Source of the DNA: Candidatus Binatia bacterium
GTDB taxonomy: Bacteria; Desulfobacterota; Binatia; Bin18
Length of the DNA: 64,000 nucleotides
Reading direction: 5' to 3'
Assembly (NCBI GenBank): GCA_963666315.2
Contig: CAXXHG010000014.1
Span: forward strand, 32,001-96,000
The notes beneath the pieces are model-generated. The model searched no databases. It was not told the origin of the DNA and saw only the letters and a list, made by a program, of their open reading frames with translations. Of the stretch, positions 44,155-62,130 are shown one piece after another (within the stretch, counting starts at the first letter, position 1; each line of letters opens with the position of its first letter). The position numbers were made by a program, and so were the translations under genes.

Positions 44155-44182
44155 GGAAAATATTGCTTCACTGCGGCGGCGG

Positions 44183-44200
44183 TCACGGTACAAACGATAC
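44183..44200. repeat. att core, left copy
   Basis: Duplicates the last codons (VSFVP-stop) of gene 62113-63312. Confidence 0.9.
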
Positions 44201-44375
44201 AAACCGTGTCATTACTACCGAGCGATACAGTCTGTGATAGAGGCTGATACAGTGCGCTAAACCTAGGCGAAAGGCATTCCTCCTTCATGTCTGTATCTCT
44301 CGGTGACACACGATAGCACCAAGTCCCACACGCGAATAGCTACCATTTGTATCGCCAGTTGATTGAACAACATTC

Positions 44376-44427
44376 CTCTCCATTCCCCCCGAATCCCTGT
44401 GAAAGTCCCGCGAATTTTCACAACAGG
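44376..44427. repeat. 52-bp copy of the left-end motif of the 26632-27901 element
   Basis: 49/52 identical to 26730-26781. Confidence 0.92.
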
Positions 44428-44840
44428 CGCGAGAGTGAAGGAATCAGGGATTGACTGTAGCTAGGAACACTTATCACTCTTGTCTTTCCATCTCGGCGAG
44501 ACCGATATCAATGTCAAGAAGCCGCATGCGACGTTTATGCACTGCTACACGGTCAAGAAAAAATACTCACCCGGCCGTGCGAAGCAAGTGTTCTCGCTGC
44601 GGAACATGGCCAGTGGTCGCCGCTAATCCCCAAAACGTAGGGGAAGGTGGTGACGCAGCAGTGGGAGACAAAGGCTATTAATCTCCGCGCCGATGGAAGC
44701 CGGAACTTCTAGGTAGAAGAGTATGACCTGGCTACGTGGTCCAAAACGGGGACAGTTTACGCCTCGGACTAGCGCCAACGAAGAAAAGGAAAAAGGAGCG
44801 CATCATGGCGGACGGACGGCCACCATGGCGTCTTCAGCGG

Positions 44841-46345
44841 TCACATGTTTTTGTTGTGGAGAAAGAGCCAATCAATAACCAGGGACGGGAATCGCGCGTT
44901 TAAAACGGGAGAGTGAGTCGCCCCGCGCATTCGCCAAAGCGCGAAGGTTGTAGCTTCAACACATCCATCAGAAAACACTGTGACAGTGGTCTCGCCACCT
45001 TCTATAGTCGCTACTAGATCCAATGCGGCGCCGGGTTTGCTCGCCGTCAAGTCACATTCCGCGATTGTTGCCCAGCGCGAGACAGTTTCGAATGCACCCG
45101 GGTAAGTGGAGAAGCCGATAGATCCTCCGCCGAAGCGTATGGTGGTATCTGCGTCGCCGTGTATGTGCAACACGCTAACGGGTGTAACTGCCGCGCACGA
45201 TATTTCCCGTTCATAGGTTGTTCCCGCGACAGACACGATGGCTGCAATATCCGCCGGGCGCTCGCAGGCCAGCGTATGGGCCATGAAAGCACCATTGGAG
45301 TAACCCACCAGGTAGACTCGGCCCGCATCGACGTTATATGCCTCCTTGGCGAAAGCGATGAGACTCCCCAGGTAGGCGACATCGTCCACTGCACTGCCGT
45401 AAAAGTTGCAGCAGCCACCGGGTATAGCGTTCCAGAAGCGATACTCGTTCGCAGAGTTCTCGGGTGTCCCATTAGGGAGCATCAGAACAAAGCGACGAGC
45501 ATCAACAATGTCGGATAGTCTGAAGTATTGATCCTGCCACTTCCCATTCATCGTATATCCGTGGAGCAAGATGACGAGAGGCAACTGTTCGTCGATTCGA
45601 ATCCCGGCGGGCAGTTGGACCAAGGCAAGCCGCTCGCCGTCAGAGAGATACGCCCGGTTCTTTATGGACGATACTGTAAACGCCTGCAGTGCAGTATCCC
45701 ATTTAAGACGGATCTCCACATCCGTGCCGTCCACGCGGACACCATCAATGACCACTTCGTCATTGTCCATGCGCGTCGTCGCCTCTGACATATCAACACC
45801 TGGAATAAATTCTAGATCCCCGAGTTTGGCCACCACGATGTCCCTGTCGGTGGAGCGCATCACTTCGCCATTTTTTGTCGTCACCTGGTCGTCACCTGAA
45901 TGGAGACTGTATGTCGTCCCTCGGTCAAAATTCCCCAGTTTATTTTGGTGCTGAAGCCACTACCAGCAGCTTGTTCATTTTCGGGATACGCTGTTGCTAC
46001 ATCTAGTCGTTCGGAGCAGCATGGGACGGTCCCTGCCTCGACCCCATCAATGGAGAAAGTGACCCTGGCCACGGGGTCAGACGCATCCGTTGAAAACGCC
46101 CATCCATCAATCTGGCCGATTCCCGAAACTACGCCACCAGCAGGATTTTCCAAACTAGCCACAACCTGTGCCTGCGCAATACCTCTGGCTAAACAAAGGA
46201 TCAAATATATAACACAGCAAACAGCGAGCGCTCGAACGGACCCGGAAGTCTTAGCCTTCATCAGGGAACACGCTGACGTTTTACCGAGCGGTGCCTCAGG
46301 AGTGGGTTCCGCGTCGCCCACGTGGACTTTCTTCCATGCTTTCAT
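44841..46345 (-). pseudogene. Secreted Ig-like domain plus PHB-depolymerase/LpqC-type esterase, frameshifted by an 11-bp duplication
   Basis: Signal peptide, LLHGY, GYSNG, IHGDAD and GATH; GTCGTCACCTG is doubled at 45877-45898. Confidence 0.8.
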
Positions 46346-46371
46346 ACCCGGAAATATACTGGACTCTACGT

Positions 46372-46553
46372 GGTATTGTCAAGTTATGGCAGGGAGAGCA
46401 AAAAGTTGCACTCGAAGTGGGAGGAATAGATCCCCCAGAAGTGCTTTTTCTGTCCGCGGTGGGATGTACAGCCTCTGCACAGCCAATAACACGCCACGAA
46501 TCTGGCATCAGGTGGGAGAGTCGAAAATGCTTGTTCTATAACTTGACAGTACC
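46372..46553. mobile_element. 182-bp MITE with IS6-type ends
   Basis: GGTATTGTCAAGTTAT ... ATAACTTGACAGTACC; right end identical to 57808-57823; no transposase. Confidence 0.85.
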
Positions 46554-47193
46554 CGCGCGCGGCCTCCGTGCACTCGTCCTGCTAATCAACGGCCCCCTTA
46601 CACTTTCGGGCGTGCCAACGCACGACTTCCCAATGTTTGTCATTCCTCCAAGGATGATAATAGACCCGGTTCCATCAAGACCGAGACGGTCCATGCTATT
46701 CACTTTGAAAATGCTTAGTCGCAGTAGACAATCTCATTGCTAGCCTGATTGAGAACGCCGGCAACCCCAAAAAGGGCAGTAGGTTCGCATCGGAGTCGCC
46801 CAAACGGGCCGTTCCGTTTTTCAGCTCTTGCGCGCAAGTGATTACAACGCCGGTGTCTAAAATTTCAACATGGCTTTACCCCCGAGGGTCCTCCTGGACA
46901 GCTTCACCAGCTCGTATGGACTGACCGCCATATTCAGCCTGTGCGGCACGATCCCGGCTTGGCCCATACTAAGGCCCTCGCTGGATCGGTGTTTGTTCAT
47001 CTGCCCAGCAGCGCGTAAGCCGTGCCGGCATGGGGGAGGAAAATTGTCTTGTCCCGTTTCATTGAGCGAGTGAGTCCTGGCCCCACCAAGAAAGGGGACA
47101 GTAATGTGACGGGTGGGTCGGAGCGATTATCCGGGAGGCGAAGTTGACAATGGCCGCGTTGGTGGACCACGCCACTGGAGATTGATCGTAAGC

Positions 47194-47781
47194 TTACCCA
47201 ACCCGTTCCTCACCGGCGGTTGCAGCGATGCTACTGAGCACTTTCCGCCCCTCACGCAGCAGCGCATCGAAACGGGCCTCCAACGCTGGGCTACTGCCCC
47301 TGCATCCGGCCACAACTTGACCCGCCCAACGCAAATATTCCCGCCGCCGGTCGAGTGACCATTTAACAGGTGGATGCTTGATGACGTCGTCGATATTGCA
47401 AATTTTGTCCGCGAGTTTGATCGATTTTGCTTCGCGTGAGAGCTTTGGCGCGTGTTCGATCTGCGATTTTTTGCGCTCGTCTTTTGGCAGATCCTTGTCG
47501 TCGCTGACCTCCTCAACGAGCTTGCACACGGCGAGGCCGAAGGCGTCTTCCAGTTCCTCTAGCGTCGTCCCCGTATCTTCAACCGTATCGTGGAGAAGCG
47601 CCGCACTTAAAATGTCAATGTCCGTCACCCCCCCTACTTCGCTAAGCGTTTCGGCCACGGCCAAGGGGTGATTAATATAGGGGGTGGCGTCCGCCCCCTT
47701 GCGGCGTTGATCCCGATGTTTCTTGGCGGCGAAACTTGCGGCGGCCAACAAGCGCGCGGAGTCTGAACCGTGTTCTGGCAT
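47194..47781 (-). CDS. HD-domain small alarmone hydrolase (Mesh1/SpoT-like)
   Basis: HRDQRRK, PYINHP, AALLHDTVEDT and IKLADKICN. Confidence 0.9.
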   Translation of the reverse strand: MPEHGSDSARLLAAASFAAKKHRDQRRKGADATPYINHPLAVAETLSEVGGVTDIDILSAALLHDTVEDTGTTLEELEDAFGLAVCKLVEEVSDDKDLPKDERKKSQIEHAPKLSREAKSIKLADKICNIDDVIKHPPVKWSLDRRREYLRWAGQVVAGCRGSSPALEARFDALLREGRKVLSSIAATAGEERVG

Positions 47782-47873
47782 GGGTAGCTCCTACTGTAAC
47801 TATTCTTGAAAGGGAGTAGCGGAGGGAGACACCCTTAATTTAAGACTGCTACGCGGAGAGTCAACAAAAGCGA

Positions 47874-47903
47874 CGCAGGGCGCACCTATGTGTGCGCCCT
47901 GCG
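47874..47903. repeat. Perfect 12-bp hairpin, REP-like
   Basis: CGCAGGGCGCAC-CTATGT-GTGCGCCCTGCG in a divergent intergenic region. Confidence 0.65.
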
Positions 47904-47950
47904 GGATGAGTAGACATATTGGTTTGTCCCTACAACGAGAAGGAGGAATT

Positions 47951-48427
47951 ATGCCAAGCGGACAAGACGGTATGAGCACGAGTATTGCTCGGTTTGAGGA
48001 TCTCAAGCCGATTGACTACGCGAGCTTTATCAAGAACTACGAACCTGACGGGATGCGGGGCTACGCATTGATCGGGAGGGCGGGCAAGACTGTTCCTGCT
48101 ATCGCAGGAAACCATGGTTTTACCATGGTGATTAACAAGGTAAGCCCGGGCAAGGGAGCCCCGCTGCATAGCCACCCCAAACCAGAAGTCTTCGTGGTGC
48201 TGTCTGGAAAATGCGCTTTCTTCTGGGGAGACGACGGCAAGAACGAGGTCGTGCTGGAACAATGGGATACGATTTCCTTTCCAGCTGGAACACCAGAAGG
48301 CTTTCGGAATATTGGGGCTGAGGAGACGAATCTCTTAGTCATTTTGAGTGGTTCGGCAGTGGGCGAGGTGACGTTCACGAAACAGCGAGATGAGGCGGAA
48401 GCGGCAGGGGTAGAGGCAGAGCGATAA
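47951..48427 (+). CDS. Cupin domain protein
   Basis: GAPLHSHPKPEVFVVLSG and DTISFPAG; AGGAGG RBS. Confidence 0.88.
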   Translation: MPSGQDGMSTSIARFEDLKPIDYASFIKNYEPDGMRGYALIGRAGKTVPAIAGNHGFTMVINKVSPGKGAPLHSHPKPEVFVVLSGKCAFFWGDDGKNEVVLEQWDTISFPAGTPEGFRNIGAEETNLLVILSGSAVGEVTFTKQRDEAEAAGVEAER

Positions 48428-48461
48428 TCAAAGCACGGGAGGGGTGAAAGGAGGACTTTGT

Positions 48462-49370
48462 ATGGCAACATTTTCTGTTGATCAGGTTGAGATTTTTGGC
48501 AAAGGCGTACTGCAAGCCGAGGGTGTGGTGGTTGATAAGGAGGGCAACGTTTTTGGCGGTGGGCGTAACGGCATCATGTATAAGGTCACACAAGATGGCA
48601 CTGTGAGTGAGCTGGTCACACTTCCCGAGGGGTCTATTCCGAATGGCGTTACGATGGACCGGAATGGCGATCTGGTGTACTGCGACCTGGGCAAGCAGGC
48701 GATGATGCGCGTCACCCAGAGTGGCGAAGTGTCGCTGATTGCGGATCAGGTTGGCTCGCTGAAACTGACACTGCCGAACTTTGCCAGCTACGATGCTGAG
48801 GGCAATTTATACATCTCGAATTCGAGTACGTCGACTATTGAGAACGTACTCGCCGAATTGGCTACGCCCTCGGCCAAAGGGGCGCTCGTCGTCATCCGTC
48901 CGAACGGCAAGAGCGAAATTGTGGCCGAGGGCATTTATCTGGCTAACGGCACAGCTATCGATCCCAAAGAAGACGCGGTCTACGTGCTGGAAAGCACCCG
49001 GAATGACTGTCTGCGTATCCAGATCAATAAGGATGGTACGTTTGGCAAGCCTGAGATCTACTCCAAAGATTTTCCGTCTTTGCCGGATGGAATGGCCTTT
49101 GATGTGGACGGCAATATGTATGTGACTCTGCCGGCGGTGGTGAAGGGTGGAGAAATGGTCCCGGCCCATCAAGTCATCGCCGTTGACACCAACGGCAATT
49201 GGCGCATGCTTATTGATGATTCTGCCGAAGGCAAGAAGCTGAACTTTCCGACCAACTGTGCCTTTGGTGGGCCGGACTTGCAGACACTGTACATCGCCAA
49301 TCTCGAAGGCGATCACTTCAGTTGTCTCAAGACTCCCTACAAAGGCCATCCGCTGTACCATCAGCGCTAA
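48462..49370 (+). CDS. SMP-30/gluconolactonase family protein
   Basis: AEG, PNG, ANG, PDGMAFD and PTNCAFGG. Confidence 0.92.
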   Translation: MATFSVDQVEIFGKGVLQAEGVVVDKEGNVFGGGRNGIMYKVTQDGTVSELVTLPEGSIPNGVTMDRNGDLVYCDLGKQAMMRVTQSGEVSLIADQVGSLKLTLPNFASYDAEGNLYISNSSTSTIENVLAELATPSAKGALVVIRPNGKSEIVAEGIYLANGTAIDPKEDAVYVLESTRNDCLRIQINKDGTFGKPEIYSKDFPSLPDGMAFDVDGNMYVTLPAVVKGGEMVPAHQVIAVDTNGNWRMLIDDSAEGKKLNFPTNCAFGGPDLQTLYIANLEGDHFSCLKTPYKGHPLYHQR

Positions 49371-49386
49371 TAGAGGGAGGCGGCCT

Positions 49387-50352
49387 ATGAAGGCAATGCG
49401 AGCGCATCAACCCGGAGGACCAGAGCAGCTCCGGTATGAAGATGCCCCCGACCCTGAGTTGGGAGCCGGACAGGTCCTCATTCGGGTCCAGGCTATTGGC
49501 ATTAATCCTGCCGATTTGGTGCGGCTGTCCGGCAAACTTGCACCGCTGAAACTCCCCTATATCACTGGCACGGATGTATGTGGTGAGGTCGAAGCCGTGA
49601 GTCCAGGCGCCACTCAGGTCAAGGTAGGCGACCGCGTATTTGGCCGCGCGATTAGCGCCGGCTATGCGGAAAAGACGTGTCTGCTCGCCCGCGAGGCAAT
49701 ACCCCTACCCTCCGCACTCTCTTTTGCTGAGGGGGCGGCGATTCCGATACCGTTTTATACGGCCTACTATGCCTTGCATCACAAAGCAGGACTGCAGGCG
49801 GAAGAAACGGTCCTGATTTCTGCCGGCGGCGGTGGCGTTGGCGTTGCAGCCATCCAGCTTGCCAAAGCCGCAGGAGCTCGGGTGATCACCACGGTCGGGT
49901 CACAGGAAAAAGTGGAACGGACACGCGAGCTGGGTGCTGACGTGGCGCTGAATTACAAACAGCAAGATTTTGCGGCAGAGGTTCTCAAGCTCACCGATGG
50001 CAAAGGGGTGGATGTCATCATTGAAAACGTCGCTTCAGATAACTTGGCTGCCGACTGCTCAGCCATTGCCAAGTCCGGCCGCATTGTCTTGATTGGTACG
50101 GGCACCGGCAAGGCTCCAGACGCTACGTTTGGCGTGTTGCCCGCGCTCATCAAAGATATCACCTTCTATGGCATGAGCCTTATTAATGCTGACCAGGTCA
50201 TCCCAGAGATGGCGGGTACGCTCACCCCGCTGTTTGCCGAGGGGAAGCTCAAAGCGCCGGTGAGCAAGACGTATCCGTTGTCTGAGGCCGCCCAGGCTCT
50301 GAATGACCTGCTTGCGAGTAAAGTTTTTGGCAAGCTGGTTCTGACACCATAA
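49387..50352 (+). CDS. NADPH:quinone reductase (MDR family)
   Basis: GINPAD, GTDVCG, SAGGGGVG and GKLVL. Confidence 0.9.
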   Translation: MKAMRAHQPGGPEQLRYEDAPDPELGAGQVLIRVQAIGINPADLVRLSGKLAPLKLPYITGTDVCGEVEAVSPGATQVKVGDRVFGRAISAGYAEKTCLLAREAIPLPSALSFAEGAAIPIPFYTAYYALHHKAGLQAEETVLISAGGGGVGVAAIQLAKAAGARVITTVGSQEKVERTRELGADVALNYKQQDFAAEVLKLTDGKGVDVIIENVASDNLAADCSAIAKSGRIVLIGTGTGKAPDATFGVLPALIKDITFYGMSLINADQVIPEMAGTLTPLFAEGKLKAPVSKTYPLSEAAQALNDLLASKVFGKLVLTP

Positions 50353-50384
50353 AAAGTCCACTCAGCAAGGAGGAAAGGAAGACT

Positions 50385-50795
50385 ATGGCAATCACACTAG
50401 CGCTCGCGGAACAGTTTATTACTGCAGCCAAAGAAAAGGCTCAGGAAAAAGGCTGGGATATGAGTTTTGCTGTGACTGATTCCGCCGGAAACTTGGTGGC
50501 ACTGGCCCGCATGGATAATGCTCGCTGGCTGACGACTGGCGTTGCCCAGAGCAAGGCGTTTACCGCTGCGACTTTCCGTCGGACCTCACGCGAGGTTGCC
50601 GAACTGGCGGAATCACGCTCGCAGTTGTTTAGCAGCGTTGCAGACATCATCGGACGGCCGTTGCTGTTGGCCGGAGGCGGTTTACCGCTGGCCGTCCATG
50701 GCGAGTTTCTTGGTGGCGTGGGTGCCAGCGGCGGGACGGAGGATGAAGATATTGAATGCGCCCGTGCGGCGCTTGACGCAATCGGAGCTGAGTAA
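50385..50795 (+). CDS. GlcG/HbpS (DUF336) heme-binding protein
   Basis: VTDSAGNLVALARMD, KAFTA, GGLP and GVGASGG. Confidence 0.9.
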   Translation: MAITLALAEQFITAAKEKAQEKGWDMSFAVTDSAGNLVALARMDNARWLTTGVAQSKAFTAATFRRTSREVAELAESRSQLFSSVADIIGRPLLLAGGGLPLAVHGEFLGGVGASGGTEDEDIECARAALDAIGAE

Positions 50796-50815
50796 GTAGC
50801 CCGACCGCAATCTGA

Positions 50816-51884
50816 ATGGCCCAACCTCTCAACATCCTGCTCCTCGGTGCGGTGGGCGACTCTGTCATCAAGAAGATTGAGGCTATTGATCCTCGCACTC
50901 AGGTTGTGGATGCACGCGGGAAATTCGAGGTCGAGTATGCCGAAAACCTGGCCGGCAGAATCCGTTCGTCGCTATGTGCCGCGATCACTCGTAGCGGCAA
51001 ACACCTCGACCCGCGCCGAGCGAGACGCACTGCTAGCCGAAGCCGACGTCATCTGCATTCGGTTTCCTTTTCCGCTCGACTTACGTGCTCGAGCGCCGCG
51101 TCTCAAGTGGCTACACCAAACACCGGCGGGTGCCTCAAACTTGCGCATGGGCGACATGTGGGGCAGCGACGTCGTAGTCACAACGTCGCGTGGGCTGAAT
51201 AACCCTTTGCCTATCGCGGAATATGTTCTGTCCATGATCTTCCTCTTTGCAAAATCTTTGCCTCAAGCGTTCCGTGATCAGAACAATCAGGCATTCGAAC
51301 GCCGAGAATATCGTCCCATACTGGTACAGGGAAAAACCGTAGGCATTATCGGCCTGGGTGGCATTGGTTGTGCTGTTGCGCGTCTCGCCAAAGCAGTTGG
51401 GATGTCTGTTGTGGCGACACGGCGATCAGCAACAACTACACACACGAAGACCCAAAACGTTGACGAACTGCTCCCACCATCAGCGCTGTCTACTCTGCTT
51501 AAACAGAGTGATTTTGTTCTATTGAGTACCCAATGGACACCGGAAACGGACGGGCTTATTGGTGAAGCTGAACTGCGTCAGATGAAATCGATCGCGTATC
51601 TTATTAACGTTGCTCGGGGTGAACTGATTGACCAATCGGCCTTAACCAAGGCGTTACGTGAGGGTTGGATTGCTGGGGCGGGCCTAGATGTCTACAGCGG
51701 AGAATTCGCCGGTCCGCCACCAGAGGAAATCTGGCAACTGCCCAATGTCGTGATTACTCCGCATACATCAGGTGGAACTGATGTCCAGCAAGCAAAAGGC
51801 ATAGAGTTATTTTGCGAAAATTTGCAGCGCTATATAACAGGCCAATCCCTCTTGAATGTATTGGACTGGGCGCGGGGTTACTGA
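50816..51884 (+). CDS. D-2-hydroxyacid dehydrogenase (frameshift in A-run ~50944)
   Basis: GLGGIG, INVARG, GLDV and ITPH; N-terminus in the adjacent frame. Confidence 0.87.
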
Positions 51885-52095
51885 AGCCGCGCAACGGGAA
51901 ATCGGCCATTTCCCGCTGAATTGCATTTTCAATTACCTGCTCCGCTACGGTAGGCTGCGCGAAAAGTACACCCTACCACGAAGAAGCTCACCGATTTTGT
52001 CTTGTCTATACAATCCTGCCCCACGAACTGGAGGAGACGTAAAGACATTGCTTTTTCCTTGTCCTGTCTTTATGCTCCCACCGTCTTGAACTGAT

Positions 52096-52533
52096 TTGAA
52101 AGGAAAAGAGACCAGCATCGTGTGTGGCCGGTATTCCTCACGTCTGCTCCACCTTGTGACCCTCGGGACTTTCCTGACCTACTTGTTATCGGGAGCGAGC
52201 TTTGCCTTGCCCGCAGTAGAGCATTGTGAGCGGTGCTCTAGAGGGAAGCAGGTGAGCGCAATCCGGTCTGGCGCATCGTGCCCATTGTCTGCGCGTGGCC
52301 CTCACTGTCATACCGCCCATCTACACACTGCGGGCAAAATTAGCATGTGTCCTGATGGGTGCTTGCACCATGAGCAGGGGGGAGAAGTCTCCAGCATCGC
52401 GAAGTTTGTTTTCCTCAATGCCGCGCATACCGCGTCCGGACTCCCCATCAGTCCGCCGGTCGGCGAACGACAAGGACTGTTACCCGATGGGTATCTGACC
52501 CCGCCGACGCAGCCGCCACAGGCAGCCCTCTAG
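52096..52533 (+). CDS. Cys/His-rich DUF2946-like protein
   Basis: N-terminal TM, CERC, CPL, HCH, CPDGC and Pro-rich C-terminus PPTQPPQ. Start uncertain. Confidence 0.55.
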   Translation: MKGKETSIVCGRYSSRLLHLVTLGTFLTYLLSGASFALPAVEHCERCSRGKQVSAIRSGASCPLSARGPHCHTAHLHTAGKISMCPDGCLHHEQGGEVSSIAKFVFLNAAHTASGLPISPPVGERQGLLPDGYLTPPTQPPQAAL

Positions 52534-52692
52534 GCTGCCTGCATAACGTCTAATCGCTCCGTGAACTGCCCCTGTCGGATCAGAAGAGGTGCGTCCGCGT
52601 GGGACCGCCTGTTTCTGATTTGTCCAGCGTTGCTAAACGTACTCTGCCGGGAGAGGCCTCTCTGTGTCTCCACCAGGGTGAGAAAAAAATCA

Positions 52693-53589: not shown

Positions 53590-54055
53590 CGAATTGCTGC
53601 ACTGGCAAAGCTAAACGGTAAGATTGAGAGGTCACAAAAGGTTCGATGCCATCATCGAAGATAGTATTCGTCGCGTTCGGCATCCCTTTTGGGATGTTCT
53701 GACCAGGACCCAACGCTGAAGGGTGTCGACGAGTATAAGGAGGTGGAGAAGGCCATCGCCGTCTACACCGCCGAGCTGGATCAGAGTGCGCCGTACAGTT
53801 AGGCCTGCTCTATGTAACGATCGCGACTTCTGCCTGGGGGAAGATGGACGCTAGCCGAGCCTCTCCTTCTATAACGGTGAGACTCTTTCCTCGCCTTGTC
53901 GGATGAAGTCCTTCCTCAGACTCTGTGTTCACCTGGCTTCTCCCCGGTTGTCGCAAGTAAGATTGTACCGGTCAAGACGTTGGTGGAGAGGAAGAACGAC
54001 ATGGCGGGTAACTTAACTCTAAGAGTTGAGTCTGCACTCAGAAGGAGGGATAGTA

Positions 54056-55006
54056 ATGCATGGTAGGGAGGGGATCTATGGTCTCATCCTCAGCATCAGC
54101 TTCGCCGTGTCAGCGCAAGCATTCGGGTTAGCAGACTGCACGCTCGACGACTCAGCGGCAGAAGAGAGCCGTATTGAGCACCTGTATGGAGGCGCGCCGG
54201 ACGATGCGGAGATACATGCCCGTCGGGCATACGTGTTTGCCTATAATGGCGCATTCAAAGTGCCCCAGTGGGCGGCGTGGTCGGCAACAAAAGAATTCCG
54301 AGACACCCCCAAGCGAAAAAAGCGCTGGAAGACACTTCGAACCGATCCCCTGCTTCCCGATGTGAAGGCTCGAGACTACCGGGGCTGGTTTGATACCACG
54401 GAAAACTATGCCAGAGGCCATATTGTACCGTATTTTATTTCAGGCGGAGACCGGGATAACGATGGCATGGATGCCGAGTTCGAGGAGAATCTCCGGGTTG
54501 AAGACGAAGACGACGCCTGTACGGTCTTCGAGATCAACGCCATGAGCAATATCGCGCCGCAGTTCCACACCCGGTTCAATGGGCAACCCGGCGTGTGGTG
54601 GCTCCTGGAAACGCACGTGCGTTCCATGCTTGACCACGGGCGCGAATTTCAGCTCTTTGCCGGGACGATTTTTCTTGATGACGTACAAGTGAGGAAGATT
54701 GGCCGAAAAGATGCCCCCGAGACGTGGGATATCGGTGTGCCACATGGGTTCTTCAAAATTGTTATTGATCCGGCTCGAGAACAGGCTATTGGGTTCCTGT
54801 TCGATCACGCAGGCGACCTGGCCAGCGGCTGCAATATTGACGATGCAAGTGTAGCTGGGCCAGCCCATTGTATTAGGGACATCAATCAGATTGAGGCCGC
54901 TACAGGCCTGAAATTCTTTGCCGCATTTTCAAATGCAAAGAGACAAAGGCTCCTCAAGGGAAGTACGCCAGCGACATGGTCAACCTGGATTGGTAGGGAA
55001 GACTAA
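54056..55006 (+). CDS. Secreted DNA/RNA non-specific endonuclease (NucA/EndG family)
   Basis: Signal peptide, ARGHIVP, MSNIAPQ..FN, W..LE and VPHGFFKIV. Confidence 0.9.
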   Translation: MHGREGIYGLILSISFAVSAQAFGLADCTLDDSAAEESRIEHLYGGAPDDAEIHARRAYVFAYNGAFKVPQWAAWSATKEFRDTPKRKKRWKTLRTDPLLPDVKARDYRGWFDTTENYARGHIVPYFISGGDRDNDGMDAEFEENLRVEDEDDACTVFEINAMSNIAPQFHTRFNGQPGVWWLLETHVRSMLDHGREFQLFAGTIFLDDVQVRKIGRKDAPETWDIGVPHGFFKIVIDPAREQAIGFLFDHAGDLASGCNIDDASVAGPAHCIRDINQIEAATGLKFFAAFSNAKRQRLLKGSTPATWSTWIGRED

Positions 55007-55309
55007 AGTTCAAGGTGTTCGCGAGCGTCCACCCGAGAATACCCCCAGGATGCCGTTAAGAAGAGCTCAATATTGATCCCCAATCAAGAACGACTTTGTA
55101 CAAGCAATAGGGTACCGAACGAAAAAATACACGTACTGCTTACTCTTACTGAAATACGCCCGCTGTTTGGCGTAATAGACGGCAACGTGATTGTTCGCTT
55201 TTTCTCACCCCGTGCCGCGACGGCCAGGGAGTATCAAATGTAGGCTGCTTGCACAGTCGATGTGTCGTAGATGACGACTTGATTGCCCTCCTATGCTACT
55301 TACGGCTCT

Positions 55310-56032
55310 ATGCAGGAGAATCCTTTCATATCTGTGGTGGTTCCTGTCTACAACGAGGCTCTAACTATAGAGACGACCATCAATCGCATAGAGGCCGAAC
55401 GATATAGGAAAGAGATTATCCTAGTGGATGATGGATCCAACGACGGAACAACGGAGCTGTTGCAGAATCGAACAGAATCCACTAACCAGGATTGCTCTAT
55501 TCAGGTTCTACTTCACAGAACAAATTTGGGTAAAGGCGCAGCTGTTCGCACTGGTTTCCGTCACGTAACGGGCGATATTGTCATAATTCAGGACGCGGAC
55601 TTGGAGTATCACCCCTCAGACTATTCGAAGCTGTTGGGACCCTTTATCAACGGAGAGGCAGACGTGGTCTACGGCTCTAGGTTCTTAAATACGGAGAGTT
55701 CCATGAGCTTACACTTTCTAGGAAACAAAGTGCTGACCATGCTTTCGAACCTTTGTACAGGGTTTCATCTGACCGACATGGAAACAGGGTGCAAGGCTTT
55801 CCGATCCGAATTTCTCAGTCGAATCTCCTTGTGCGAAGATGGATTTGGATTTGAGCCGGAAATTACAGCAAAACTTGCAGGGTTACAGGCGAGGATGGTG
55901 GAAGTGCCCATATCCTATAGCAGACGCGGGTACAGTGCTGGAAAGAAACTCAAATGGAAAGACGGGGTAGCCGCACCTTTCTTCATACTCCGCTATAATT
56001 TGGCGCGGTGTTTGCGCCTTTCACGCCCGTAG
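55310..56032 (+). CDS. GT2 glycosyltransferase (DPM1/GtrB-like)
   Basis: VVPVYNE, VDDGSNDGT, GKGAA, QDADLEY, GSRF and TDMETG. Confidence 0.92.
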   Translation: MQENPFISVVVPVYNEALTIETTINRIEAERYRKEIILVDDGSNDGTTELLQNRTESTNQDCSIQVLLHRTNLGKGAAVRTGFRHVTGDIVIIQDADLEYHPSDYSKLLGPFINGEADVVYGSRFLNTESSMSLHFLGNKVLTMLSNLCTGFHLTDMETGCKAFRSEFLSRISLCEDGFGFEPEITAKLAGLQARMVEVPISYSRRGYSAGKKLKWKDGVAAPFFILRYNLARCLRLSRP

Positions 56033-56043
56033 CACATTCCAAT

Positions 56044-56280
56044 ATGGTCCACAGGCCACCTTTCGGTAAGCCACAAACAAAAGCCCTCGCCCTTGTTGCG
56101 GGGCTCTTAGTGGCGGGGTTTGTCCTTCGATTTGCGTTTATCAATTCACAGAGCCTGGGGCACGACGAAATCTATACGCTAGGGTTCTTGAGCGGGTACG
56201 ACGCATATCTTTTCCCAGGGGCGAACCTCCAGCCCTTTGTGGCAGACGGGCCATGGCTCAACCACGCCCGACCTGCATCG
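56044..56280 (+). pseudogene. N-terminal fragment of a GT-C (PMT-like) membrane glycosyltransferase
   Basis: TM helix then LRF..NSQSLGHDE motif; similarity lost after ~60 aa. Confidence 0.5.
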
Positions 56281-56438
56281 CAGAACATAATGCTTGAACA
56301 AAGCGTGGACTTGAACAGCGTCAATGTTTGGTGGGTTCGTATGAGACATCTCCCCGTTTCTGACAGTATTAAGCGCACGACCAACGCATTCATGCTGGTC
56401 TGGATTCTGTGCTTGGGGTTGGTTTGCGGACGCATGGT

Positions 56439-56983
56439 ATGTCTATTACGCTGAACAGATATGCGCTAATCATCGTACTTCTGGGCGCCCTCGTCCGCCT
56501 AACTGTTTGGTATGCTAATCCGCCGAACAATGCCTATGACGATCATCTCGAAGTCATTGCACACGTCGCCCGCAGTTTTGAACGGCCTACGATCGACAAC
56601 TGCTTTCAGTGTTACCATCCGCCCTTGTATTACTTTGTTCAAGCAATGGTCCTGCGAGGCACGCACGCAATCACTGGAAGTTTTTGGACCGCGTGGAGAA
56701 CCGTCCAACTGAGTAGTGTTCTCTTTTCGATCTTTCATCTCCTGGTTTGTTGGAAAATATTGAGCAGTGTAACCAAGCCACATCTTCCGTCGCAACTCTG
56801 TGCGCTGGCAGTTCTCACATTCCTCCCCAGAGATATTTATACGTCCGCCTTTATCGCGAACGATACTGCAGTGATACTTTTGGGAGCGATTGCGATCTTG
56901 ATCTATACAAGAGGCTTTGCGAGTGAAGTCTCACATCGACCTCTTATAGCCCTGGTCATCCCCATCATTCTGGCTGCCTGGAC
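56439..56983 (+). pseudogene. GT-C (ArnT/PMT-like) membrane glycosyltransferase truncated by IS6
   Basis: YDDH, YHPPLYY and IAND motifs with TMs; the frame runs into the IS6 terminal repeat. Confidence 0.72.
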
Positions 56984-57823
56984 CGTACTGTCAAGTTATC
57001 GGGGCAGGGTACGAAAATCACGTAGTGTGAGGTAAGATGAGGGGCATCCTTACGCCACTTCCAGCCCCATTGTCACGTCTCGCCAGGTCGTAAAGGCCCG
57101 CTCTCGAAACAACCGATAGTGAGCTGCCTTCATCAAGTGCCGTCCAATCCGAAAGAGATTGTTGATGGGACTGTGGACGGACAGAAACCGCTGTACGTGT
57201 CGTAAAGATTTGAAGCGGCGCATGTGGCGTTCGCGTTGCCGGGTGGGTTGGTGAGAGACCTCAGCCCGGTTGTTAGCGTACTGCCTGGTGTAGTGAGTCA
57301 CGGACGGCATGGTAATCCGACGAGCAGCCCCATAGCTGCGCAGTTTATCAGTGACCAGCCGATTGGGAACGTAGCGCAGCCCCTTCAACAACTTGCGAAA
57401 GAACCGTGTGGCCGCGCCTGTATTCCGGCGTTTCTGCACCAGAATATCAAGCGTGTCTCCATCCTGATCTACTGCCCGCCACAAGTAATAGCGCTTGCCC
57501 CTGATGCGGATGAATAGCTCATCCAGATGCCAGGTGTCGCCTGGTCGTCCCCGTCGTCGGCGTAGTTTCTTGGCGAAGGCTTGCCCAAACTTGAAACACC
57601 ACTGCCGCACCGCTTCATGGCTGACGATCACGCCGCGCTCGGCCAAGAGCTCCTCGACTTCGCGGAAACTGAGGCTAAAGCGATGATAGAGCCACACTGC
57701 ATGGGCAATGATTTCCGGCGGAAAGCGATGATTCTTATATAGGTCTGTGGTAGGTAAGGGCATGCCTCAATTACGGCCTGCAGAGTCACTGCTGTACAAG
57801 GGCCTCGATAACTTGACAGTACC
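56984..57823 (-). mobile_element. IS6-family insertion sequence (~840 bp)
   Basis: 17-bp IR GTACTGTCAAGTTATCG at 56985-57001 and 57806-57822; no target duplication. Confidence 0.93.
57050..57763 (-). CDS. IS6-family DDE transposase
   Basis: HRFPPEII, WHLDE, YLWRAVD, TDK and NNRAEVSH. Confidence 0.95.
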   Translation of the reverse strand: MPLPTTDLYKNHRFPPEIIAHAVWLYHRFSLSFREVEELLAERGVIVSHEAVRQWCFKFGQAFAKKLRRRRGRPGDTWHLDELFIRIRGKRYYLWRAVDQDGDTLDILVQKRRNTGAATRFFRKLLKGLRYVPNRLVTDKLRSYGAARRITMPSVTHYTRQYANNRAEVSHQPTRQRERHMRRFKSLRHVQRFLSVHSPINNLFRIGRHLMKAAHYRLFRERAFTTWRDVTMGLEVA

Positions 57824-59143
57824 TTCTTCACAATACTTCCACAGCGCCAACGCCGCCTGGATATGATCCCGGCGGATAGTGACTGACAAATCAAGCAACG
57901 CATAGGCAACACTCAGACGGAGAACTTGGGCTTCCGCCCGTGACAAAACCGCACCAAGCAGCCCCTGCTGGCCGGCACTCAAGTCCGCGTACACTTCATG
58001 CCATAGCGCACTTGCACACTCGTCCCGTGTTAGGGCATTAGTCTTCCGTGCAAACTCGATTGTCTTGCGGAGCTGGTCGATTAGTGGTTCGAGTATGTGA
58101 TCCGGGATTGGTGGGGCGTCGGGTAATAATTTTGACCGCTCAACCCACACCCACAGGAAGCGGTTGGCAAACCCATTCGCTTTACTCGTATCGTCCAGGC
58201 GAGCAAGCAGCTCATCTTTGGTGATATGGCCGACTATAGAAATATGGGGATTGGTGGCCGCAAGCGGGTTATTGCGGACGAGAGTTGAAAGCGTTCCCCC
58301 ATCCCAGCCTTGCCGGATAACGGGCGAGAGGGTATTACCAACTCGATTCATGACGTTCAGGACGGAGGCAAACTCCTCTTCGATGATCATGAGTCGTTTG
58401 TCTTCGACCGCTTCCTCTTTAAGAACTTGCTGATAGCCTTCTACCTTGCCTTTGTGTCCTTTGATGGGTTCTTGCTTGTACAGCGCGTCCCGGACCACAT
58501 AGATGACGCCTTCACCGGAACTCAGTCCTGTTTTAATACGGTCCTTGGCCCATCCGGGATCGACTGTTGAAAAAATGTGTCGGATAGGACTCCATCCCGT
58601 TCCTTTTCGACCTTTGCTCGATACGCCGACCTGTACAATAAACAACCGGGCCGGATGGTTACTGTGTAGAACTATGGCGTGAGGCGCCGCGTTGATACAG
58701 TTCCCGAAGGCGGTAAGAAAGTTGGTCAAGGTAGCAGCAGGATCGGCTTCGGTGTATGGATCGATTCCCTTCACGATCCTGCCAGCAAGACCGTGGAGTG
58801 CGGCATCATCCAAGCGCGGCCCCGTCCGTCCCAAACCTTGGTCCTTGTTCCGCTGTGCCTGACCGTTTGTGTCGGTAGAGTGGCGATCCGCCGCCTCCAC
58901 ATCTTCCATAATCGCTTCCTGCTCTTCCGGTGACAGGGCGTCCCAGGAAGGCTCGGCTTCATTCTCGGCTGCATTGCCGTTATCGAGGTCGTCTTTGGAA
59001 GTGGGGTCGGCATCCGATGGGGGCAAGTCGTCCGGCTCATCGAAATCGTTTCTCTCCTGTTCTGCCATCTCGCGGTTCTCGTAATCGTCTCGCACCAGGC
59101 GCTCAATCGTAGTAAAATCATCATCCATTCCCGCGTGCCCCAT
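57824..59143 (-). pseudogene. DUF3987 (YfjI-like, helicase-related) protein truncated by IS6
   Basis: GVSSKGRKG, SSGEG, EEEF, WDG and NGFANRFL; after YCEE the frame reads into the IS6 end (GTVKLS). Confidence 0.8.
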
Positions 59144-59559
59144 GTCCGCTCCCTTCTCCTAATGCTTTGTCGTCAATCCCGCGTATGCGGCGCATCAAGG
59201 CAACTACGCCTGCCCGTGGTATAGAACTCATCGACGAAATCTCTCTCGGGCCGGCGGCGGCAAGAATCTGAACTTCTTCCTTGATGTCCTCCAGGGCGCG
59301 GCGGTAGGGCTTGGACAGTTCTTTGCCCGTCCGCTTGGGCGCGCCGCGAAAGCTGAGGCCGTGATATTTGCGCAGAAATTCGATGGCGTCGCCGTCCGCC
59401 CGCAGCCGAAACAGTGGTAGCGCGGGGGTCTTCCTGGTGGAAGACATAAAACGAAGGTGTTTTTTCTGCGTGAAACGGGCAGAAATCTACCAGGCGGATG
59501 CCAGCGCGTTTGGGTGCTACTCCGATGGCCTCCGCGATCTCTACCAGGGTTTTACTCAT
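59121..59559 (-). pseudogene. CHC2 zinc-finger (primase-type) protein, frameshifted
   Basis: CPFHAEKTPSF, YHCFGCG and DGDAIEF lie in three different frames. Confidence 0.8.
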
Positions 59560-59618
59560 TGGCGGTAATTCCGCAGGTCTTTGGGCAGGCAATTTCCACA
59601 CACCGCCAACGGGATTGG

Positions 59619-59831
59619 TCACCCCGCATCGTCATGCGCAGTGTTTGTCTTTTGCCTCGCCTTCTGTTTTCTTTCATCCAACCTCTTTAGGTATCCCCGT
59701 ACCGCGCCTACATCGTAGAATCGCAAACGTCCGACCGGCTCATAGGGCATCCCAAATCGTGTGTGTTTACGAACAAAGGCTTCGCTACAACCGAGAGCTT
59801 CTGCTAAACCCTTCGCGTTGACTGTTTGCAT
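59619..59831 (-). CDS. Small HTH protein (excisionase/Nu1-like)
   Basis: LAEALGCSEAFVRK..GMP..GRLRFYD; GGAGG RBS. Confidence 0.75.
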   Translation of the reverse strand: MQTVNAKGLAEALGCSEAFVRKHTRFGMPYEPVGRLRFYDVGAVRGYLKRLDERKQKARQKTNTAHDDAG

Positions 59832-59948
59832 AATTAATCCTCCATTAGCCGAATTTAGAGTTCAGTGTAGCTGCACGGCACTGGACATTCAATACGATAG
59901 AATGTATCATTAGCGTGGTACAGAAGATTTTCCACTTAGAGTACTTTT

Positions 59949-60911
59949 ATGAGAAAAATTTTCGGCTTTGAGAATGTCGTAACAGAGGCTGGATATAACT
60001 GGATGGAGACCTTCGCATTGGACCCCGCGACGGGGAAAAAGCAAGGCAAGCGCGACTGGTTCCTCACCAACGGAATGAGTGCCGGTACGTCATTTCATAC
60101 GCGCGCTGTTGATCCTCTCCAGCATAATACCGCGCCGTATCGGGAGTTTATAAAACTTCCCGACCGCAATGCAATGAAAGCTTTTGCTTGCAAGTATGGC
60201 CTATTAGGTGAGCCTGCTCGGCGAGAGGTCAGTAGAAAAATACTTCTTCCCCCAAAGGGCGAAGGGGTAGGCGAGTCTTTCTTTGATTGGACGTTTGAAA
60301 TTGAGTGTATGGCGCAGGTCGTAAGTCTCTGGGATATGATCACGCAAGAGGACGCCAAGGGGTTGTCTCGGCACATCATATGGAACGAGGAAAATGACCA
60401 GGTGCGTTTCGTTAGTGGCTGGTCGGGGGTAGGTTATAGCAGCGTTAATATCATTGCCGATAGAAATAATGTCCCGGAGCTGATGGAACACTTCCACCTT
60501 GGCGATGTACTAGAACCTGCCTTATATCATGTACGCCGGGTAGTCGGTGACCGATTAAAAGACCGGCTTGTCCCTCGCCTAGAGCCCGCTGAGCCACCTA
60601 AGCGATTACGGCTATCTTTTGTGGCTGAAAGCCTTATTGGCTTGTTGTGGTTGCAATGCGCTCAGGCCATTGATGGCAATAAGGATTATCGAGCATGTGA
60701 GCATTGCGGAACGATTTTCGAGATTGCTCCGAAAGCGGCTCGGAAGAGTCGGCTATATTGCGCAGATGCTTGTCGCTTTCGGGCGTATCGAGCGAAACAG
60801 GTCCAAGCACAGAAACTTCATGCTAGTGGAGTCAACATTCGAGACATTGCCAAGCAACTCAAAACGGATGCTAAGACCGCAAAAGGATGGGTGAAGAAGA
60901 AGAGTGCTTAG
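59949..60911 (+). CDS. CGNR-type zinc-finger regulator with C-terminal HTH
   Basis: CEHC...RLYCADACRFRAYR, then IRDIAKQL..TAKGW; divergent from the HTH gene. Confidence 0.72.
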   Translation: MRKIFGFENVVTEAGYNWMETFALDPATGKKQGKRDWFLTNGMSAGTSFHTRAVDPLQHNTAPYREFIKLPDRNAMKAFACKYGLLGEPARREVSRKILLPPKGEGVGESFFDWTFEIECMAQVVSLWDMITQEDAKGLSRHIIWNEENDQVRFVSGWSGVGYSSVNIIADRNNVPELMEHFHLGDVLEPALYHVRRVVGDRLKDRLVPRLEPAEPPKRLRLSFVAESLIGLLWLQCAQAIDGNKDYRACEHCGTIFEIAPKAARKSRLYCADACRFRAYRAKQVQAQKLHASGVNIRDIAKQLKTDAKTAKGWVKKKSA

Positions 60912-60993
60912 CATCGAATCAGGTTGCATGACTAAACAGAAAAAATTCATAGAGCATGGCGAAGTTGCGGATACGCAGAAAGGAGCGAGGTAG

Positions 60994-62088
60994 ATGCCAA
61001 AGTATCGTCGGGGCTGTGGCAGTGTCTATACGAAGCGCGGCTGGTGCTACATCAAATATCATGTGAATCGCGAACCCGTCACGGAATCAACAGGCACAAA
61101 GGACAAGGCAGAAGCCCGGCGCCTCCTACAGGTCCGCCTTGGTCAGGTGGCGGAAGGCCGCTTTGTCGGGCTAACGGCTGAAAGACTTACGTTTGAGGAC
61201 TTGGCCAAGGGTCTGTTGGACGACTACCGGGCTAACGACAGGAAGACTGTCTCATGGGTCGAGCGCCGTATTCACTTACACTTGGCTCCGTTCTTTCGTG
61301 GCCGAAAGGCCAAAGAAATCGCCACCCCAACCGTCACGGAGTACATTGCACGACGCCAACACGCTGGCGCGAAGAATGGCACTATCAATCTTGAACTTGC
61401 CGCCCTCAAGCGCATGTTCAGCTTAGCCGTCCAGGCCGACTATCTCGCCAAACGGCCCTACATTCCCCACCTACTGGAGAACAATGTCAGGCAGGGGTTC
61501 TTTGAGCAGCAGGAGTTTAACGCGGTTTTGGCGCATCTCCCGATGTATCTGCGACCAGTGATGACCTTAGCCTACCAGTTGGGCTGGCGTGCAAGGAGCG
61601 AAATTTTACCCCTTACCTGGGAACAGATAGATATCCAACTTGGCGCTGTGAGGTTGGAAGTCGGCAGCACCAAGAACAGAGACGGGCGCTTGATTTACTT
61701 GCCCCAATACTCGCGCAGTGTCATTGAAGACCAGTGGCGTCAGCATCAGGACTTGCATCCAGAATGCCCCTATGTCTTCCAGCGCGACGGCAACCGAATT
61801 CGTGCCTACCAACGGGCCTGGACCAAAGCGCGCCGTGAGACAGGTCTTTTAGGCAAGGTTCCCCATGACTTCGGACGGACGGCGGTGAGAAATATGGTAC
61901 GAGCAGGAATCCCTGAACGGGTGGCGATGCAGATATCCGGCCACAAGACACGGGCCATTTTTGATCGCTATCACGTCGTGTCTGACCAGGACCTAAAGGA
62001 GGCTGCGCAGAGGCTGGATCGAATGATGATCGAACCAACAGCTACCACTTTAGCTACCATCGTGCACAGCGAGCAGCTAACGCATTGA
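60994..62088 (+). CDS. Tyrosine recombinase/integrase
   Basis: GWR, TKN, HDFGRT (HxxR Arg replaced), SGHKT and DRY; N-terminal arm-binding region. Confidence 0.93.
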   Translation: MPKYRRGCGSVYTKRGWCYIKYHVNREPVTESTGTKDKAEARRLLQVRLGQVAEGRFVGLTAERLTFEDLAKGLLDDYRANDRKTVSWVERRIHLHLAPFFRGRKAKEIATPTVTEYIARRQHAGAKNGTINLELAALKRMFSLAVQADYLAKRPYIPHLLENNVRQGFFEQQEFNAVLAHLPMYLRPVMTLAYQLGWRARSEILPLTWEQIDIQLGAVRLEVGSTKNRDGRLIYLPQYSRSVIEDQWRQHQDLHPECPYVFQRDGNRIRAYQRAWTKARRETGLLGKVPHDFGRTAVRNMVRAGIPERVAMQISGHKTRAIFDRYHVVSDQDLKEAAQRLDRMMIEPTATTLATIVHSEQLTH

Positions 62089-62112
62089 TTTTATGAAAGT
62101 CTGATCCGGCGT

Positions 62113-62130
62113 TCACGGTACAAACGATAC
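62113..62130. repeat. att core, right copy
   Basis: Identical to 44183-44200. Confidence 0.9.

Follow-up and report, generated by a model that had tools for sequence, protein, structure and literature searches.

The stretch analysed here, which we call the window, is 64,000 nucleotides of a Candidatus Binatia bacterium (contig CAXXHG010000014.1; G000:C14:32001–96000 in our numbering), taken from a metagenome-assembled genome, G000, of 4,986,022 bp that comprises 47 contigs and is 92% complete. It carries an integrative element lodged in the 3′ end of a gene for a zinc (Zn)-dependent alcohol-dehydrogenase-family protein. With a probability of about three in four, we consider that a small element, originally of ~5–7 kb, inserted at this 3′ end and has since decayed and been enlarged to 17.9 kb. 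The initial annotation, made from the letters of the window, had described an 18-kb satellite-like element. That likeness holds for ~4.4 kb with an integrase, helix-turn-helix (HTH) and DUF3987-primase layout, but not for ~12.8 kb of host-derived cargo bracketed by insertion sequences (IS); because of this division the 18 kb is an accreted island and not the native size of a mobile element. The replication genes are broken, and no capsid, packaging or interference gene was recognised. The element is thus a real but fairly ordinary genomic island, of a kind already known. The coordinates of its features are collected in Table 1.

Site-specific insertion at the 3′ end of a dehydrogenase gene

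The two ends of the element are defined by an exact 18-mer, TCACGGTACAAACGATAC, which stands at 44183–44200 and again at 62113–62130. The right copy consists of the stop codon and final five codons of the dehydrogenase gene and is separated by 24 nt from the end of the integrase open reading frame (ORF). When the repeat is widened to 24 nt (44177–44200 versus 62107–62130), 23 of the 24 positions are identical. Allowing up to two mismatches, the 18-mer has just two sites in the 4,986,022-bp genome, a reversed control pattern has none, and an arithmetic estimate gives ~0.03 exact 18-mer pairs per 64-kb window by chance. The initial annotation had reported this repeat, its identity with the last dehydrogenase codons and the integrase beside its right copy, and its coordinates, the 23/24 extension and its genome-wide uniqueness bear that report out.

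Excising 44201–62130 in silico leaves the limonene-1,2-epoxide hydrolase (LEH)-family gene of the left flank and the dehydrogenase gene convergent, with their stops 28 nt apart. Empty sites were looked for in related genomes and found. All 24 of the other genus genomes searched have the dehydrogenase region, and the count of empty sites covers the 19 loci returned from these genomes, with G001, G003, G010, G013 and G016 outside it. In 18 of the 19 (L005–L022), the MutS2/LEH flank (window 43000–44182) abuts the dehydrogenase 3′ end. The two closest of these, G020 and G024 (~83% identity), have an identical 18-bp core and a 28-nt stop-to-stop spacer, exactly what removal of the element predicts and the same convergent arrangement that the initial annotation had deduced; in more distant species the core shows 3–4 mismatches. 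The proposal of an integrative element with its attB in the 3′ end of a metabolic gene is therefore upheld by the 18 empty loci and the unique 18-mer. The genes at 44.2–62.1 kb are not syntenic core at this locus, nor does the 18-mer occur at many unrelated loci.

Composition does not clearly mark the boundary: the GC content is 0.48–0.58 in the element versus 0.54–0.58 in the flanks. No tRNA or tmRNA gene lies within the window, and no Rfam family was matched at E≤0.1 in 43.0–63.5 kb. Mimicry of a tRNA by the att core was considered and rejected: the best match to the tRNA genes of the genome is 16/24, and shuffled cores give 13–18. Directly upstream of the LEH gene lies a MutS2-type gene (MutS_V and Smr domains, 41293–43641), ordinary flanking core whose synteny is kept genus-wide.

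Candidate arm-type sites were also seen. As the initial annotation stated, TAGCTACCAT is present near both ends: it is exact at 44337–44346 and 62051–62060 and has no other site in the window. On its own, this lone 10-mer match between the arms is weak and not significant, as 11.4% of random 300-nt windows share some 10-mer with the left arm. It gains weight because an AGCTACC-N5-AGCTACC dyad in the right arm recurs, with the same spacing, in the left arm of the element in the related genome G009. The window left arm keeps one AGCTACC (44338–44344) before it diverges from G009, and the AGCTACC repeats are candidate arm-type integrase sites.

An occupied site in a sister species

The flank in G009 is ~95% identical to that of the window and the site is occupied, with both junctions present. 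One contig (C83) contains the dehydrogenase gene, the core and the final 121 nt of the element, followed by a different IS6 copy and the contig end. Another (C410) contains the LEH gene, the core with one substitution and ~145 nt of the left arm, after which it diverges from the window. An integrase orthologue was not found in this genome, which is 81% complete, the best match being 52% identical. As G009 carries both junctions, the insertion probably predates the split of the two species.

The occupied site in G009 also bears on the possibility that the island is an assembly chimera, in which parts of the metagenome-assembled genome were joined via repeats. The genome is indeed fragmented and incomplete, another contig matches a 1,431-nt block of the element at 99.72% identity, and the element contains several dispersed repeats. 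But contigs from public runs X17, X18 and X19, which may include the source sample, bridge attL, the left end of a miniature IS6 element, both IS6 junctions and attR with 0–4 differences. Specifically, attL is bridged by an X17 contig over 43770–44428 with 0 differences, attR by contigs of all three runs, and the IS6 junctions by contigs over 53448–57041 and 57794–62219. In addition, the host flanks neighbour each other in 18 relatives, which requires a single insertion between them, both junctions recur independently in G009, and the copies on C14 and C32 differ at four positions and hence do not represent a collapsed repeat. A chimera is accordingly very improbable. The run comparison used assembled contigs from four runs, in which rare forms are invisible, and alternative joints were not reported in these contigs.

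A decayed integrase–primase backbone

The mobile core spans 57824–62112 together with 146 bp at the left end, ~4.4 kb in all. Pfam and PHROG scans, which covered 26 ORFs in 44.4–62.1 kb, a six-frame reading and comparison with relatives give its order, from right to left, as the integrase (+), a 320-aa gene (+) and then, divergently (−), a 70-aa HTH ORF, a CHC2 gene and a DUF3987 gene. The integrase is full length, as its homologues span 94–100% of it, and in an alignment of 27 sequences R199, K227, H291, H317 and Y326 fall in invariant columns, with R294 nearly invariant.

Both replication genes are damaged. The DUF3987 ORF runs into an IS6 inverted repeat at 57823/57824, whereas full-length relatives (P0133 and P0124) extend ~76 aa further; the missing C-terminal part (~76 residues) is absent from the whole genome. 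In G024:C37, a DUF3987 segment that is 99.2% identical continues uninterrupted past the point of the IS6 junction. The 8-bp flanks of the IS6 element differ, so there is no target duplication, and the IS is thus linked to a deletion or rearrangement rather than to a simple insertion. In the CHC2 gene, the CPFH and CFGC halves of the zinc finger lie in separate frames. A second frameshift is suggested just after CFGCG, judged against the DnaG finger motif. At the first CHC2 shift, a seawater-metagenome contig of run X1 carries an additional G (after 59423), while X17, X18 and X19 agree with the window; the backbone thus exists in nature in a less-decayed variant too. A 1,603-nt X1 contig lies on 57824–59166 only, and 260 nt of it run past the IS6 junction, consistent with an uninterrupted DUF3987 gene in that population.

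The 70-aa ORF is a candidate AlpA/excisionase-type factor. Its position is that of HTH_17 genes in the relatives L208, L154, L167 and G024:C37, and its language-model neighbours include HTH_17 clusters at 0.92. The 320-aa gene lies 82 nt upstream of the integrase and matches no Pfam family above threshold. Its protein belongs to a family with 4,072 representative relatives at E≤1e-3 (210 at 1e-30) in which four cysteines are invariant in an alignment of 60 sequences, and its AlphaFold2 model has a pLDDT of 91.9. Among solved structures, the DUF1470 protein 3h0n is matched best (Foldseek E=0.042; VIA Z 6.2, root mean square deviation 5.7, 144 aligned residues), and residues 274–320 match HTH domains of the DeoR, TrpR and resolvase types (Z 4.6–5.9). 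Beyond a DUF1470-like core and a generic HTH, the fold has no strong solved or viral match. By this model the 320-aa protein is probably a DNA-binding regulator, and the position of its gene would be compatible with a role in excision.

Relatives of the backbone and the native form of the element

Intact and near relatives of the backbone are small. The element on the metagenome contig L208 shares the gene order of the window backbone, namely integrase (55% identical), 220-aa zinc-finger gene, HTH_17, CHC2, DUF3987 (57%) and a small TubC_N-like ORF, and the zinc finger of the 220-aa gene matches the 320-aa family with an hhalign probability of 90%. It is intact and resides in a tRNA-Phe gene, and copies of a 50-bp repeat of the tRNA-Phe 3′ half, spaced 7,076 bp apart, form its two bounds. 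The relative at G024:C37, which contains the 99.2% identical DUF3987 segment, is ~5 kb and has no structural genes; no relationship of its 449-aa and 81-aa ORFs to the window 320-aa and 70-aa ORFs could be detected. Of 80 metagenome contigs that encode DUF3987 relatives, 18 gave a tblastn match to an integrase as well, in most cases next to a tRNA gene. Parts of the backbone occur in 22 public runs; the uncoded labels are seawater or marine metagenomes and one cold-seep, and six labels are coded. Single-protein scans of IMG/VR with the DUF3987 and 320-aa proteins gave no match, and profile scans gave 22 loci for DUF3987 and two for the 320-aa protein. The L208 element (L208:6753–13878) carries an ankyrin-repeat gene as well and is a good reference for the family.

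More distant DUF3987 relatives (45–54% identical) adjoin phage genes, which raises the question of whether the backbone is the stump of a temperate prophage that kept its integrase and replication module, host DNA having taken the place of structural genes that the IS6 event removed. In the IMG/VR phage contigs L229 and L241, such relatives stand beside large terminase, capsid, portal and protease genes; others lie near a small terminase gene (L239) and tail-fibre genes (L234), and on L118 a 51% identical DUF3987 relative lies with a terminase fragment and an HNH gene on the upstream side of an integrase homologue. The window also lacks the sequence that once followed the DUF3987 gene, as this origin would have it. 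Yet the elements at G024:C37 and L208, the two closest comparators, end within ~2–3 kb of DUF3987 without any structural gene, and neither Pfam nor PHROG detected a structural or lysis gene of a phage, or a fragment of one, in 44.2–62.1 kb. We therefore hold a prophage origin to be quite improbable and favour a small element as the ancestor.

A mosaic cargo of chromosomal segments

The remainder of the island, 44347–56984 (~12.8 kb), is a mosaic that is 86–99.7% identical to chromosomal loci of the same genus. The segment 44487–46383 matches G024:C39 at 95.2% identity over 1,897 nt, its counterpart there being part of another variable region and next to an IS-like repeat. The segment 52098–53848 has a 94.1% identical counterpart on G009:C327, immediately after the resident (C32-type) operon described below, and 53921–55034, with the endonuclease gene, is 96.7% identical to G020:C145 and has a partial 91.5% copy on C32. 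The 182-bp miniature IS6 derivative has a 95.8% identical copy in G009:C108 in a different context.

The largest block is a second copy of a genus-wide operon, which is found at 81–85% identity over ~3.9 kb in at least 14 places in 13 other genomes of the genus, ~100–130 kb from the dehydrogenase locus where one contig holds both. The resident operon of G000, on C32, lacks the Zn-dehydrogenase gene. Window positions 47939–49369 are 99.72% identical to G000:C32:108525–109955 (four mismatches in 1,431 nt) in a sharp-edged block, whereas 50392–51897 is just 85.7% identical. This pattern suggests recent gene conversion between the island and resident copies of the operon.

The cargo is bracketed by IS6-family ends, those of the miniature derivative (46372–46553) and of the full IS (56985–57822), which have inverted repeats in common. 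An IS-end fragment (44487–44625) also serves as a segment boundary. The arrangement differs from an IS6 pseudo-compound transposon with two full copies and an 8-bp duplication, as there is one transposase copy and the flanking 8-mers differ. At least nine further copies of the IS6 family, at 75–90% identity, are present in G000 (contigs C8, C15, C21, C22 and C43), and a different IS6 copy cuts the integrase remnant in G009, which suggests that the family is active and that it remodels islands in this lineage.

Proposed formation of the island

In the course of events that we favour, the attP of a ~5–7-kb tyrosine-integrase element would have recombined with an 18–24-bp core at the extreme 3′ end of the dehydrogenase gene, whereby the core was duplicated and the gene left intact. 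Decay would have come afterwards, with the CHC2 gene frameshifted and the DUF3987 3′ end lost to IS6. IS6-family activity and homologous recombination may then have imported chromosomal segments of the same genus, including the second copy of the core operon, and the element would thereby have grown to 17.9 kb. The gene layout of the original backbone is that of minimal phage satellites (PICMI, below) and also of many small islands in tRNA genes. The comparisons above establish the site-specific insertion, the empty sites, the composite structure, the gene breaks and the source of the cargo, whereas the order of events, the part played by IS6, the arm sites and any mobility today are deductions. 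As the integrase and both att cores are intact in this genome, the whole 17.9 kb may still be able to excise.

An alternative is that the whole 17.9 kb is one coherent cargo island, in the manner of a tycheposon or a classical island, which moves as a whole and whose metabolic genes are the payload under selection. In its favour, with both cores and the integrase intact, the integrase would excise everything between the cores. The operon copy in the element, with its Zn-dehydrogenase gene, is of another allele type than the resident one and fits import from another strain, and marine cargo-carrying elements with integrase and primase/helicase genes have been described (bioRxiv 10.1101/2020.12.28.424599). 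Against this, backbone and cargo meet at an IS6 element by which a backbone gene is truncated with no target duplication, the cargo blocks occur separately and in unrelated contexts in G009, G020 and G024 at 94–97% identity, the closest intact or near relatives are 5–7 kb, and among the 28 genomes searched no other genome of the genus holds the block as a unit. We thus regard transfer as a unit as unlikely and prefer stepwise enlargement of a small element.

Several points weigh against stepwise enlargement, or against parts of it. Nothing shows that the cargo arrived after rather than before integration, and gene conversion may have run either way in the 99.72% block that the element has in common with C32. 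No flanking duplications back simple transposition, and the IS6 mechanism is read from end sequences. It is conceivable that G000 and G009 acquired their insertions separately, and the interior of the G009 element is unassembled. No attB or attP joints were seen in the contigs of the four runs, although assembled contigs cannot show rare forms. Finally, the 70-aa ORF is sub-threshold in Pfam for HTH_17/AlpA (only HTH_11 appears, at E=0.093), has no homologues in a word-index search, and its single-sequence fold has low confidence (pLDDT 61.5).

Target preference of the integrase

The use of a protein-coding gene is unusual for this integrase clade. We surveyed 80 loci with integrase homologues (36–63% identical) in one-per-species genomes, 76 of which could be evaluated for tRNA genes. 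In 62 of these 76, a tRNA gene, mostly for Leu, Arg or Phe, lies within 400 nt downstream of the integrase. No Zn-dehydrogenase adjoins the integrase homologue at any of the 80 loci, so that the check proposed with the initial annotation, for close homologues beside Zn-dehydrogenase 3′ ends, turned up tRNA genes instead. At one locus (L101), a dehydrogenase-like ORF lies ~3 kb from the integrase homologue, behind a tRNA-Leu gene. The 14 tRNA-less loci have mostly other mobile or defence genes as neighbours (three integrases, Fic, GmrSD, PLD, AbiEi-like and others) and no dehydrogenase. Because 62 of 76 homologue loci adjoin a tRNA gene and none a Zn-dehydrogenase, the integrase is, by this survey of loci, a member of a tRNA-using clade that has been retargeted to a protein-coding gene.

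Paralogues of the integrase within G000 likewise adjoin tRNA-Leu or tRNA-Arg genes: one on C24 (58% identical), one on C43 that is broken and a further one, a fragment, on C37. Islands with such paralogous integrases (49–58% identical) lie at C24:30761–31966, C37:32643–41827 and C43:396641–397812. That on C37 resembles a tandem array, in which a full integrase is followed ~8 kb on by an integrase fragment beside tRNA-Leu. The paralogue on C43 is interrupted by a stop codon.

Comparison with known systems

E. coli CP4-57 YfjI and P4-like cryptic elements are small integrated elements with a DUF3987 protein beside an integrase, and 'YfjI family protein' is the name given by its source to one of our DUF3987 homologues. 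The element here differs from P4-like elements in that no psu, delta, sid or alpha-type gene was detected by Pfam or PHROG. More broadly, capsid-remodelling, packaging and interference genes of P4-like, PICI, cfPICI and PLE types (sid/psu/delta, terS, ppi, capsid) had no Pfam or PHROG match among the 26 ORFs, part of the original element having been deleted. Relaxase and type IV secretion system families had no match in the general Pfam and PHROG scans; oriT was not searched. PADLOC recognised no defence system, its sole match being a 17-bit zinc-finger score for the CHC2 ORF.

A close resemblance is to the phage-inducible chromosomal minimalist islands (PICMI) of marine Vibrionaceae, which have a backbone of ~6–7 kb and a 17-bp repeat at fis (PMC10803314). 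Both are marine and share an integrase with a gene directly adjoining it and a DUF3987-type 'primase', and the HTH gene alpA of PICMI has a candidate counterpart here (PMC10803314). In both, the insertion is next to or within the end of a protein-coding gene and is flanked by a short direct repeat, of 17 bp there and 18 bp here (PMC10803314). The SatelliteFinder model for PICMI combines an integrase (PF00589, PF00239 or PF07508), AlpA (PF05930 or PF12728) and a primase with DUF3987 (PF13148) or DUF5906 (PMC10803314). Here the integrase matches PF00589 and the 3′-truncated primase gene matches PF13148, at the E values in Table 1, while the 70-aa ORF lies in the right place for AlpA without reaching the AlpA/HTH_17 model. 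The element differs from PICMI in its target, a Zn-dehydrogenase gene and not fis, in its host outside Vibrionaceae (Binatia), in its broken primase/helicase genes and in its 12.8 kb of extra cargo, the comparison being one of gene layout alone.

SGI1-type integrative mobilisable elements offer a parallel in a tyrosine-integrase island in the 3′ end of a protein-coding gene (trmE), with an 18-bp att that preserves the gene and with IS-mediated accessory DNA (PMC9035990). In contrast to SGI1, neither a relaxase nor SGI1 backbone genes were found here (oriT as above), and the integrase clade and the target are others. Tycheposons, from Prochlorococcus and further marine bacteria, likewise pair a tyrosine recombinase with primase/helicase genes and include cargo-carrying and PICI-like forms, and degenerate elements and leftover DNA build islands at their att site (bioRxiv 10.1101/2020.12.28.424599). 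However, as described there, they use seven tRNA/tmRNA genes and have a distinct recombinase group (bioRxiv 10.1101/2020.12.28.424599). VEIMEs (virion-encapsidated integrative mobile elements) of seawater are small marine elements with integrase, AlpA and primase/helicase genes that are thought to ride phage capsids (PMC9618062). They are defined by presence in virus particles (PMC9618062), whereas the element here is known from genome sequence, and single-protein queries with the DUF3987 protein and the integrase-adjacent protein found no close IMG/VR relative.

Among the papers searched, DUF3987, integrase and satellite occur together in three: the PICMI paper (PMC10803314), its preprint and a PrimPol study. 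No paper on such elements in Binatia was found by a limited term search, which does not show that the element is undescribed. A broader and more tentative idea, to which we would give a modest chance, is that the backbone represents a family of minimal, ~7-kb PICMI-like phage satellites outside Vibrionaceae, in uncultured marine and soil phyla (Binatia, Acidobacteriota and 'Deltaproteobacteria'), in which the 320-aa family would serve as an excision or activation factor like iolg/icg of PICMI. On this view, the window would contain a satellite fossil whose att site shifted from a tRNA gene to a protein-coding gene and which became a domesticated landing pad for host genes.

Current concepts are unchanged by these findings. 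They do provide, for an otherwise tRNA-using integrase clade, an attB that is cleanly mapped within a protein-coding gene and is useful for island-mapping tools and for the study of shifts in integrase specificity. They also document, in a little-known lineage, the passage of a small replicative integrative element to a larger genomic island via IS6 and recombination between paralogues. The compact 7-kb element family and the large unannotated zinc-finger/HTH protein family are candidates for marine phage satellites.

Features of the island and dispersed repeats

Table 1 Features of the element and its immediate flanks in window coordinates.
Feature	Position	Strand	Basis
LEH/SnoaL-like gene (limonene-1,2-epoxide hydrolase family), 128 aa, left host flank	43768–44154	+	Pfam PF07858 E=1e-19
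attL core	44177–44200	.	Exact 18 bp 44183–44200; 23/24 from 44177
Surviving left arm of element	44201–44346	+	Matches G009:C410 to ~44345, diverges beyond
Dispersed ~50–70-nt repeat copy (26-nt core 44402–44427)	44371–44439	+	58–69-nt matches on C46, C27, C24, C14, C19
Cargo module A	44487–46371	-	Pfam; 95.2% to G024:C39
IS-end-like fragment in module A	44487–44625		44495–44625 72.5% identical to repeat on C32
Esterase/PHB-depolymerase-like gene	44841–45884	-	Pfam
Uncharacterised ORF	45881–46345	-	Module A
182-bp miniature IS6 derivative, both inverted repeats, no transposase	46372–46553	.	Repeats 46372–46387 and 46538–46553 match IS6 ends
~295-bp dispersed repeat	46851–47142	.	93–95% identical to two C38 sites
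HD-domain phosphohydrolase gene	47194–47781	-	Pfam HD_4 E=3.2e-20
Second copy of genus-wide operon	47888–51884	+	Pfam; loci of relatives
Cupin gene (operon copy)	47888–48427	+	Pfam
SMP-30/gluconolactonase-like gene (operon copy)	48444–49370	+	Pfam
Zn-dehydrogenase gene (operon copy)	49258–50352	+	Pfam
HbpS/GlcG-like gene (operon copy)	50385–50795	+	Pfam
D-2-hydroxyacid dehydrogenase gene (operon copy)	50847–51884	+	Pfam
Two ORFs, 145 and 342 aa, function not assigned	52096–53589	+	No Pfam, PHROG or PADLOC match
DNA/RNA non-specific endonuclease gene	54026–55006	+	Pfam PF01223 E=8.9e-20
GT2 glycosyltransferase	55283–56032	+	Pfam PF00535 E=5.3e-35; PHROG GtrB-like
Two uncharacterised ORFs	56008–56454, 56409–57035	+	After glycosyltransferase
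IS6-family insertion sequence (838 bp), 21-nt inverted repeats	56985–57822	-	Transposase 57050–57763 (-), Pfam DDE_Tnp_IS240 E=1.6e-37
DUF3987/YfjI-family helicase-like replication gene, 3′-truncated by IS6	57824–59143	-	Pfam PF13148 E=1.1e-13
CHC2 (DnaG-type) zinc-finger primase remnant, frameshifted	59173–59622	-	Pfam PF01807 E=4.9e-6
70-aa HTH ORF, candidate AlpA/excisionase-type factor (weak)	59619–59831	-	Translation; position
320-aa zinc-finger (CGNR/DUF1470-like) and C-terminal HTH protein	59949–60911	+	Family alignment, AlphaFold2
Tyrosine integrase, 364 aa, full length	60994–62088	+	Pfam PF00589 E=6.8e-16; PHROG_1 E=4.9e-45
AGCTACC-N5-AGCTACC, candidate arm sites	62040–62058	+	Dyad spacing common to G009 left arm
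attR core	62107–62130	.	Exact 18 bp 62113–62130, dehydrogenase 3′ end
Zn-dependent alcohol-dehydrogenase-family target gene, frame intact	62113–63312	-	Pfam ADH_N and ADH_zinc_N

The invariant 26-nt core of the dispersed repeat near the left end has ten copies in the genome at three or fewer mismatches, with window copies at 44402–44427 and 26756–26781 and others on contigs C19, C21, C24, C27 and C46. These repeats are often same-strand pairs 4–18 kb apart in variable regions, for example at C27 49137/62223, C24 113326/117507 and C19 41529/49422. They could represent a mobile-element end, a regulatory site or a REP-like element, and a copy also ends the element at G024:C37.

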